From: a virus
DNA length: 64,000 bases
IMG/VR virus record: IMGVR_UViG_3300042695_002264
Location: 64,001 to 128,000 of that record
Strand: one strand, 5' to 3'
Part shown: in pieces, positions 31,405 through 31,719 of the stretch
Layout: the number at the start of each line of letters is the position of its first letter
How positions within the stretch are numbered: the first letter of the stretch is position 1
Notes under the pieces: generated by a model
Told to the model about the DNA's origin: nothing
The model's input: only the letters and a program-made list of their open reading frames with translations
Database searches by the model: none
Position numbers and translations under genes: made by a program

Positions 31405-31641
31405 CAATTTGTTATCGTACAGTTGTTTATACCATACATCTATATATTTCTATATAGTTCAGACTATATCTTGGTACCAAAAGTTAATTTGGCACACAGG
31501 GCGCTCTTGGGCAGTTTTATTGTTGGGACTCAACCGCCTAGTCGTTACACCTTCTGTCCTATCTTTCCCAGACAGCTTGGCTCGGTATTGTCTTTTTGGC
31601 AAGTTATTCACCAACGAAGATATCCACCGAATTCACCCCGT
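31405..31641 (-). ncRNA. Group I intron catalytic core (IA-like, with P7.1), no ORF
   Basis: P GAATTCGGTGG 31634-31624; Q AATACCGAGCC 31589-31579; R GTGTAACGACTA 31550-31539; S AAGATATAGTC 31472-31462; P3 ACGGGGTG/CGCCCTGT; P9 CTATATA-GAAA-TATATAG; candidate terminal G at 31405. Confidence 0.88.
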
Positions 31642-31719
31642 AAACGCTATTTAAATTTTTTAAAGAACTTGAGTAGATTTTACTACTAGCAAATACAATT
31701 ACACTAAAAAATGTAGCTT

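Follow-up and report, generated by a model that had tools for sequence, protein, structure and literature searches.

The window analysed here is a stretch of 64 kb, corresponding to bases 64001-128000 of the 170.5-kb record of an uncultured virus. On its minus strand, a group I ribozyme lies between a small cysteine-rich open reading frame (ORF) and a long one encoding 788 amino acids, and is joined directly to a structured RNA domain at the head of the long gene's untranslated leader (Table 1). The neighbourhood upstream contains sugar-modifying genes (an epimerase and a GFO/IDH/MocA oxidoreductase; glycosyltransferases in relatives), while small ORFs, a UvsX-like recombinase, an HNH protein, a DnaB-like helicase, an exonuclease and a DNA polymerase follow downstream. 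The 788-aa protein has no match in Pfam, PHROG, NCBIfam or the PDB sequences, no usable hit in the ESM Atlas and no relative among isolated phages. AlphaFold gives a poor model (pLDDT 48.9), whose best fold matches (Z 5.5 over ~60 residues) are uninformative. Elsewhere in the window, a cluster of six tRNAs (13424-14423, minus strand) encloses a tmRNA with a long insert in its tag region (13553-13987, 152.7 bits), and two tRNAs reported there by ARAGORN, tRNA-Ile(tat) of 94 nt and tRNA-Met(cat) of 87 nt, are unusually long for these identities.

Table 1. Features of the ribozyme locus, listed in the direction of transcription (positions in the window).
Feature	Position	Strand	Basis
70-aa Cys-rich ORF, conserved	31720..31932	-	81% identical to the L001 copy
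P1 hairpin UACAUU-UUUU-AGUGUA with wobble U31711.G31704	31700..31715	-	sequence; homologous hairpin in 14 members
Group I ribozyme/intron, 306 nt	31405..31710	-	RF00028, core covariation, 3' end by homology
P2 region: small hairpins, then near-invariant AGUUCUUUAAAAAAUUUAAAUAGCGUUU	31642..31699	-	alignments of relatives
Catalytic core P3-P9, P9.1 hairpin and 3' tail GAUAACAAAUUG with omega-G 31405	31405..31641	-	RF00028, 30-sequence alignment
Closed 135-nt structured leader domain	31270..31404	-	RNAalifold on 11 sequences, pair counts
Mini-hairpin CC-GAGA-GG	31367..31374	-	11-leader alignment
A/U-rich 34-nt spacer from leader domain to start codon	31236..31269	-	sequence and alignments
788-aa ORF	28869..31235	-	21 homologues, 45-89% identity

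A sequence-only reading of this DNA had described a complete group I core on the minus strand and had proposed the Rfam covariance model as a check. Run on the locus itself, RF00028 (Intron_gpI) matches 31440-31722 of the minus strand with 71.6 bits (E 3.4e-18; gathering threshold 50), and the alignment spans model positions 1-253 of 253 in canonical order. The helices listed in that reading are legible in this alignment and in the sequence, namely P3 (ACGGGGUG/CGCCCUGU), P4 (UUCGGU/ACCGAG), P6 (CUGUC/GACAG), P7 (GACUA/UAGUC), P7.1 (GGCGGUU/AACUGCC), P8 and a P9 capped by GAAA. The match had been missed by an Rfam run over the whole 64-kb window with default speed filters as well as by a family search of the virus's own genome; that these filters drop a match of 71.6 bits means that AT-rich group I introns can be missed in this way. 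Ribozymes from other clades score 69.9, 69.6 and 58.7 bits with the same model.

In an alignment of 30 relatives, 25 of the 50 pairs predicted by RNAalifold are held through changes on both sides, the double changes being located in P3, P6, P7.1, P9 and P9.1, and the G-binding P7, J8/7, the terminal guanosine (omega-G) and the 3' tail are invariant. From the compensated half of the pairs, selection on the ribozyme fold is clear. As judged from these alignments, the element is a genuine, folding-competent group I ribozyme, IA2-like in having the P7.1 hairpin, and devoid of an endonuclease gene: its interior contains no ORF on the same strand, and no homing endonuclease ORF was found at the ribozyme. 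It is present as a single copy in the 170.5-kb genome (nhmmer). The canonical order of its helices, together with the lack of a second partial copy in this genome or after the leader, rules out the permuted intron-exon unit that had been suggested as one explanation of the locus.

Two further observations concern the region 5' of the core. Its small hairpins are variable and deleted in some relatives, and they are followed between P2 and P3 by a 28-nt near-invariant stretch (AGUUCUUUAAAAAAUUUAAAUAGCGUUU, 31642-31669, minus strand) to which we assign no partner; speculatively, its UCUUU could pair with an invariant AAAGA in the P6 loop, and the one change in L065 would extend this pairing. A long-range P2 formed by GUAA and UUAC, just 5' of P3, was considered and dropped, as the AC is part of P3 and UUAC is missing from the sister clade.

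The flanks of the ribozyme do not form an interrupted gene. The upstream ORF ends with a TAA at 31722-31720, as had been reported from the sequence, and 8 nt (31719-31712) separate this stop from the candidate 5' splice site. This ORF differs from its copy in L001 mostly at third codon positions, while neighbouring proteins of that phage are ~44% identical; its product has six cysteines in C-x-C and C-x-x-C motifs and no family match, and in L064-L066 it is replaced by other genes. On the other side, the 169 nt beyond omega-G contain stops in all three frames up to the ATG at 31235, which agrees with the earlier description and holds for every relative. No tRNA, rRNA, tmRNA or other Rfam family was detected at the ribozyme site. 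With the upstream stop ahead of the candidate 5' splice site and no coding sequence in the 3' flank, splicing restores no ORF, and exon ligation would not rejoin an interrupted gene. The absence of a homing endonuclease and of a protein or tRNA host gene, as first stated from sequence inspection, is thus corroborated. The 5' exon lacks conservation, and no role for it is evident.

The 3' boundary of the ribozyme was placed by homology. In sister introns located in capsid genes (e.g. L050 and L056), the exon reading frames join right after the homologous GAUAAC..UG, and between window and relatives identity is near-perfect up to G31405 and collapses just beyond it. We thus identify G31405, which had already been named as the terminal G, as omega-G; it does not vary among the 30 aligned ribozymes, and puts the 3' splice site 35 nt beyond P9, whose end is 31440. 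An IStron, in which tnpA/tnpB lie between core and 3' splice site, was considered and rejected, as only these 35 nt follow P9 and the 788-aa ORF has no Pfam domain. Separately, a perfect 10-nt palindrome (UGAUCGAUCA, 31397-31406, minus strand, with two GATC sites) straddles the 3' splice site. L060 keeps it with an altered centre (UGAUAUAUCA), and other relatives keep part of it; it might represent a splice-site helix, a dimerisation element or a site acting at the DNA level.

Directly at the 3' splice site begins the leader domain, which RNAalifold folds on the basis of 11 leaders as a closed irregular rod. Exon bases +3 to +14 pair with approximately +115 to +135 (region UAGAUAGGAGUGU...AAGAACG), the GAACG of the AAGAACG motif (31276-31270) pairing with the exon start, and the interior consists of a further helix, a mini-hairpin and a long arm with conserved internal loops. 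In the pair counts, 97.0% of cells are paired versus 78.5% after shuffling and at most 45% with slid partners. As many as 25 of the 36 pairs are changed on both sides, and none of 500 shuffles was as good. The loop of the mini-hairpin (31372-31369 in the window) reads GAGA, GAAA or GUAA among relatives and is of GNRA type throughout. The spacer that follows (31236-31269) contains no Shine-Dalgarno-like sequence.

The leader domain belongs to no Rfam family, either in the window or in two other leader types; across 31150-31800, RF00028 is the sole hit at E<0.3, and the same holds for L077 and L086. A lariat-capping ribozyme (GIR1) gave no hit at E up to 10, and the predicted rod shows no obvious resemblance to a group I-like core. 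By nhmmer, the leader occurs once in the 170.5-kb genome, which rules out a repeated regulatory element, and the 15-mer GAAGTAAACTCAGCC has 43 viral hits, all of them chance but the known relative. The suggestion that the ribozyme is an intron in a non-coding RNA is therefore right in one respect, as its 3' exon opens with a conserved structured RNA; however, this RNA makes up the 788-aa gene's leader, and conservation does not extend to the 5' exon.

The same covariation bears on back-splicing, in which GUUCUU(U)AAA of the intron would pair as P1 with UUUAAGAAC near the leader end, the RNA being cut at ~31271 and circularised onto 31404. The required complementarity is present in the window, and folding of the single sequence does pair the flanks. 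Yet AAGAACG covaries with the exon start and not with the invariant intron stretch, which rules out GUUCUU/AAGAAC both as P1 and as a flank helix. In addition, the lone intron-side change (L065) is uncompensated, L001 and L067 have no site at that position, type-B leaders are centrally mismatched, and the site is absent in L071, L075, L081 and L086, the last two being the two sister-clade leaders inspected for it. Given also that the ribozyme is not permuted and has no second half-intron, we consider back-splicing extremely improbable.

In the 30-sequence ribozyme alignment, two types of P8 track the types of leader, which may reflect shared ancestry only. A long P8 with an AUUAA loop accompanies leaders bearing the ACC-GNRA-GG hairpin, and a short P8 with a GNRA or UAA cap accompanies most other leader types, L079 being an exception.

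The ribozyme had been termed an orphan, but it invariably accompanies one protein gene, in a constant orientation. All 11 relatives defined by the protein (L001, L060-L067, L092 and L093) carry ribozyme and leader at the same place and in the same orientation, a twelfth relative represented without DNA has a matching 419-nt gap, and in ~20 more distant phages found via the ribozyme it occupies the same place. Pattern searches with ribozyme motifs yielded 7 metagenome loci, 15 further viral loci and one MAG contig. All of these but L087, an ordinary intron in an HK97-like capsid gene, have the ribozyme followed by a non-coding leader of ~100-190 nt and an ORF whose N-terminus shares the pattern L-x-K-L-G-L/F-G ... 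F-x-D (L069 and L084 end before the ORF could show). No ribozyme-less allele was seen among the relatives found, and a protein-based metagenome scan gave no matches; isolated phages share only generic core segments, which come from introns inside genes. Upstream of the ribozyme the context varies between three kinds of co-directional ORF and a divergent gene, whereas the unit of ribozyme, leader and gene is constant. As the upstream gene differs in L064, L065 and L066, this unit is tied to the gene downstream. A second, reversed intron upstream of the ribozyme in L064 was suspected and not confirmed.

Relatives of the window type are 85-99% identical to the window in the core, 53-91% in the leader and 44-89% in the protein, and in distant clades the leaders are only ~40% identical. 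One locus, L062 (2475-3016), is a mosaic in which P1-P2 are identical to the L001 type and the core matches the window at 98.8% identity, its leader and protein being only ~61% identical. The mosaic points to recombination within the ribozyme among related phages, so that the ribozyme is both constrained and exchanged. Such incongruence of the intron tree with the host would be expected of a selfish, harmless intron without endonuclease that sits in a non-coding spot, still splices and persists by recombination during co-infection with no benefit to the phage, and the sisters in capsid genes are indeed typical mobile introns, several of them with GIY-YIG ORFs. At a non-coding site, however, even an imprecise deletion should do no harm and an intron without use would be expected to disappear often, and yet the ribozyme occurs in 11/11 protein-defined relatives and in distant clades whose leaders have diverged so far, with no intron-less allele. 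We therefore regard a purely selfish intron as distinctly unlikely.

With regard to the 5' splice site, the sequence-only reading had found no convincing P1. A P1 of 6 bp with the wobble U31711.G31704 does exist and gives a candidate 5' splice site after U31711, from which the 306-nt length of the putative intron follows; the earlier verdict thus went too far, even though this helix is short and its wobble is not conserved family-wide. The GTGTAA at 31704-31699, previously taken as part of the ribozyme's own promoter, is the 3' strand of the conserved hairpin in internal guide position (motif GUGUAA(U)), and no minus-strand sigma-70-like site supports a promoter at this place; a scan for sigma-70-type sites detected neither promoter nor terminator on this strand near the ribozyme. 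Pairs 0-4 form in all 14 members with a clear P1 hairpin, and a U.G is present in 6/14 and absent in 8/14. It stands opposite the first guide G in three members (window, L061 and L072) and opposite the second in four (L064, L072, L073 and L077), the latter having canonical-looking helices of 9-10 bp with the U.G in mid-helix. Among the eight hairpins without U.G, seven from the sister clade have C-G at both positions; in the eighth, L078, a reversed G.U occupies a different pair. In about five close relatives (L060, L063, L065, L069 and L092), the sequence at the place of the P1 5' strand is A- or U-rich and no convincing strand is found. Searched by eye, P10 shows no consistent pairing of the exon start with the 5' flank of the guide beyond offset matches of 4-5 bp in L064 and in L077.

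Members of the sister clade have a divergent gene upstream, with a start codon that lies 10-15 nt before the P1 hairpin, past an AT-rich, TATATT-like stretch. For L078-L091, we note that the divergent gene begins MPNLRPFRDYSEHDV... and that the AT-rich gap to P1 (TATATTTATATT) is the only room for a promoter. The transcript of this clade thus probably starts at or just before P1, any 5' exon being tiny, and it is only here, next to a divergent upstream gene, that a promoter immediately before P1 is plausible. Because both candidate wobble positions are C-G in seven or more members of the sister clade, two-step splicing is not the conserved function of the family as a whole. An all-Watson-Crick P1 at the very start of a transcription unit could also suggest an inactive fold that is kept as a structural module of the 5' UTR, as a block to decay or a platform for protein binding, and that does not cleave. 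Against this, no variation is seen in P7, J8/7, omega-G or the 3' tail, and conservation breaks off exactly at omega-G, a pattern that points to an active 3' splice site; we judge an inactive fold to be very unlikely.

The guide motif is invariant even where the 5' strand in cis is variable or missing, as would be expected if a free guide GUGUAAU bound another RNA and attached the leader and its gene to that RNA by natural trans-splicing. In most members, however, the guide is taken up by the cis hairpin. A conserved target was not identified. In this AT-rich genome, a 7-mer composed of A, U and G is too frequent for such a test. We give trans-splicing hardly any credence.

For the window, we propose that the ribozyme excises itself from the untranslated leader of the ~790-aa gene by ordinary two-step self-splicing, a proposal to which we assign about an even chance. 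The P1 hairpin would present U31711.G31704, guanosine would attack after U31711, and the freed end of the upstream RNA would then attack after omega-G 31405. The 306-nt ribozyme (31710-31405) would be released, and the upstream RNA would be joined to the closed 135-nt leader domain, so that the mature mRNA would comprise the folded domain, the 34-nt A/U-rich spacer and the start codon. The outcome would be leader maturation of one gene, possibly with GTP- or folding-dependent control, and no reading frame would be restored. The ribozyme fold and its position, the omega-G boundary, the leader structure and the strict link to the gene are well supported; that the RNA is catalytic, that its 5' splice site lies exactly there and that it brings a regulatory benefit are inferences.

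What is invariant across the family is the core, omega-G and the junction with an exon headed by a helix, whereas the U.G and the 5' exon are dispensable; such a pattern suits a conserved function in which the leader is released or defined. The ribozyme might act in processing only, cutting at the 3' splice site by hydrolysis after omega-G, perhaps with circularisation of the intron, and with no ligation of exons. The mRNA would then begin exactly at the closed leader domain, whatever stands upstream, and its 5'-terminal helix would also shield it from decay that depends on the 5' end. In group I introns, though, 3' splice-site hydrolysis tends to be a slow side reaction, and the P1 hairpin and the guide UGUAA are strictly conserved while not obviously needed by a pure 3'-cleavage device; moreover, the window itself has a proper U.G. 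In line with processing alone, omega-G and the 3' tail are kept in all complete members examined (30 aligned) and the U.G of P1 is not, the closing helix of the leader begins at exon base +3, the ribozyme-leader-gene unit stays the same behind its variable upstream contexts, and 3' splice-site hydrolysis with circularisation but without exon ligation is a known group I pathway (PMC6274462). On balance, we consider processing alone unlikely, albeit the most serious of the alternatives to two-step self-splicing weighed so far.

A broader possibility, which we advance tentatively and rate somewhat higher, is that ribozyme and exon domain form one domesticated device, a maturase of the 5' leader that would cut at the 3' splice site, whether or not it also ligates a tiny 5' tag, and would be guided or gated by the exon-encoded fold. 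Such control may, for example, involve docking of the GNRA loop or a bound ligand or protein. If so, the mRNA of one key phage gene would be produced in a defined, stabilised or switchable form. The sister clades, with U.G or C-G at the same P1 position, offer a natural test of wobble dependence.

In the mRNA 5' UTR of Clostridium difficile, a c-di-GMP-II aptamer is combined with a group I ribozyme (Lee et al. 2010, reviewed in PMC3984707). As in that system, the phage ribozyme resides in an untranslated leader, adjoins a second conserved structured RNA, and would by processing alter the leader of the downstream gene while restoring no frame. The partner in C. difficile, however, is a known aptamer upstream of the ribozyme that selects the 5' splice site and thereby builds a ribosome-binding site, whereas the phage partner lies downstream in the 3' exon, has no Rfam match and no known ligand, and ends at least 34 nt before the start codon. 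The unit also differs in having a phage host and in being conserved across a wide phage clade. A tandem of the c-di-GMP-II type was rejected, as no c-di-GMP-II hit was obtained beside the ribozyme (31150-31800, nor in L077 or L086). The C. difficile tandem is, to our knowledge, the single described case of a co-opted group I ribozyme that does not interrupt a gene, and our literature search found no description of a leader-resident group I ribozyme in phages. Here, many divergent phages share a ribozyme without endonuclease that is fixed in the leader of an mRNA and joined to an uncatalogued, covarying RNA domain of 135 nt. If active, it would be a second and far more widespread case of a group I ribozyme that serves its carrier in the maturation or control of an mRNA.

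A close likeness in structure is with the IA2-type introns of capsid genes (L045-L059 and L087), which share the core with P7.1, the P9.1 loop and the 3' tail GAUAAC..UG, and which were found through an exact 17-mer, GUGUAACGACUAGGCGG, common to them and the leader ribozyme. Those introns interrupt frames that rejoin in frame, and several contain GIY-YIG endonuclease ORFs; the leader ribozyme, in contrast, has non-coding flanks and no ORF, and is fixed in its lineage. In function, should the processing reading be right, the phage unit would resemble the RiboJ insulators and the self-cleaving ribozymes of phage operons, in that a variable upstream RNA would be removed and a hairpin-headed leader left. 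RiboJ insulators, which Lou et al. are said to have introduced in 2012, reportedly place a synthetic hammerhead ribozyme and a hairpin before the ribosome-binding site. Unlike RiboJ and the small self-cleavers, the phage ribozyme is a 306-nt group I RNA of a different class and chemistry. If ribozyme and leader do act as one device, they would constitute a natural ribozyme insulator or riboswitch of new architecture, present in a wide clade of uncultured large phages.
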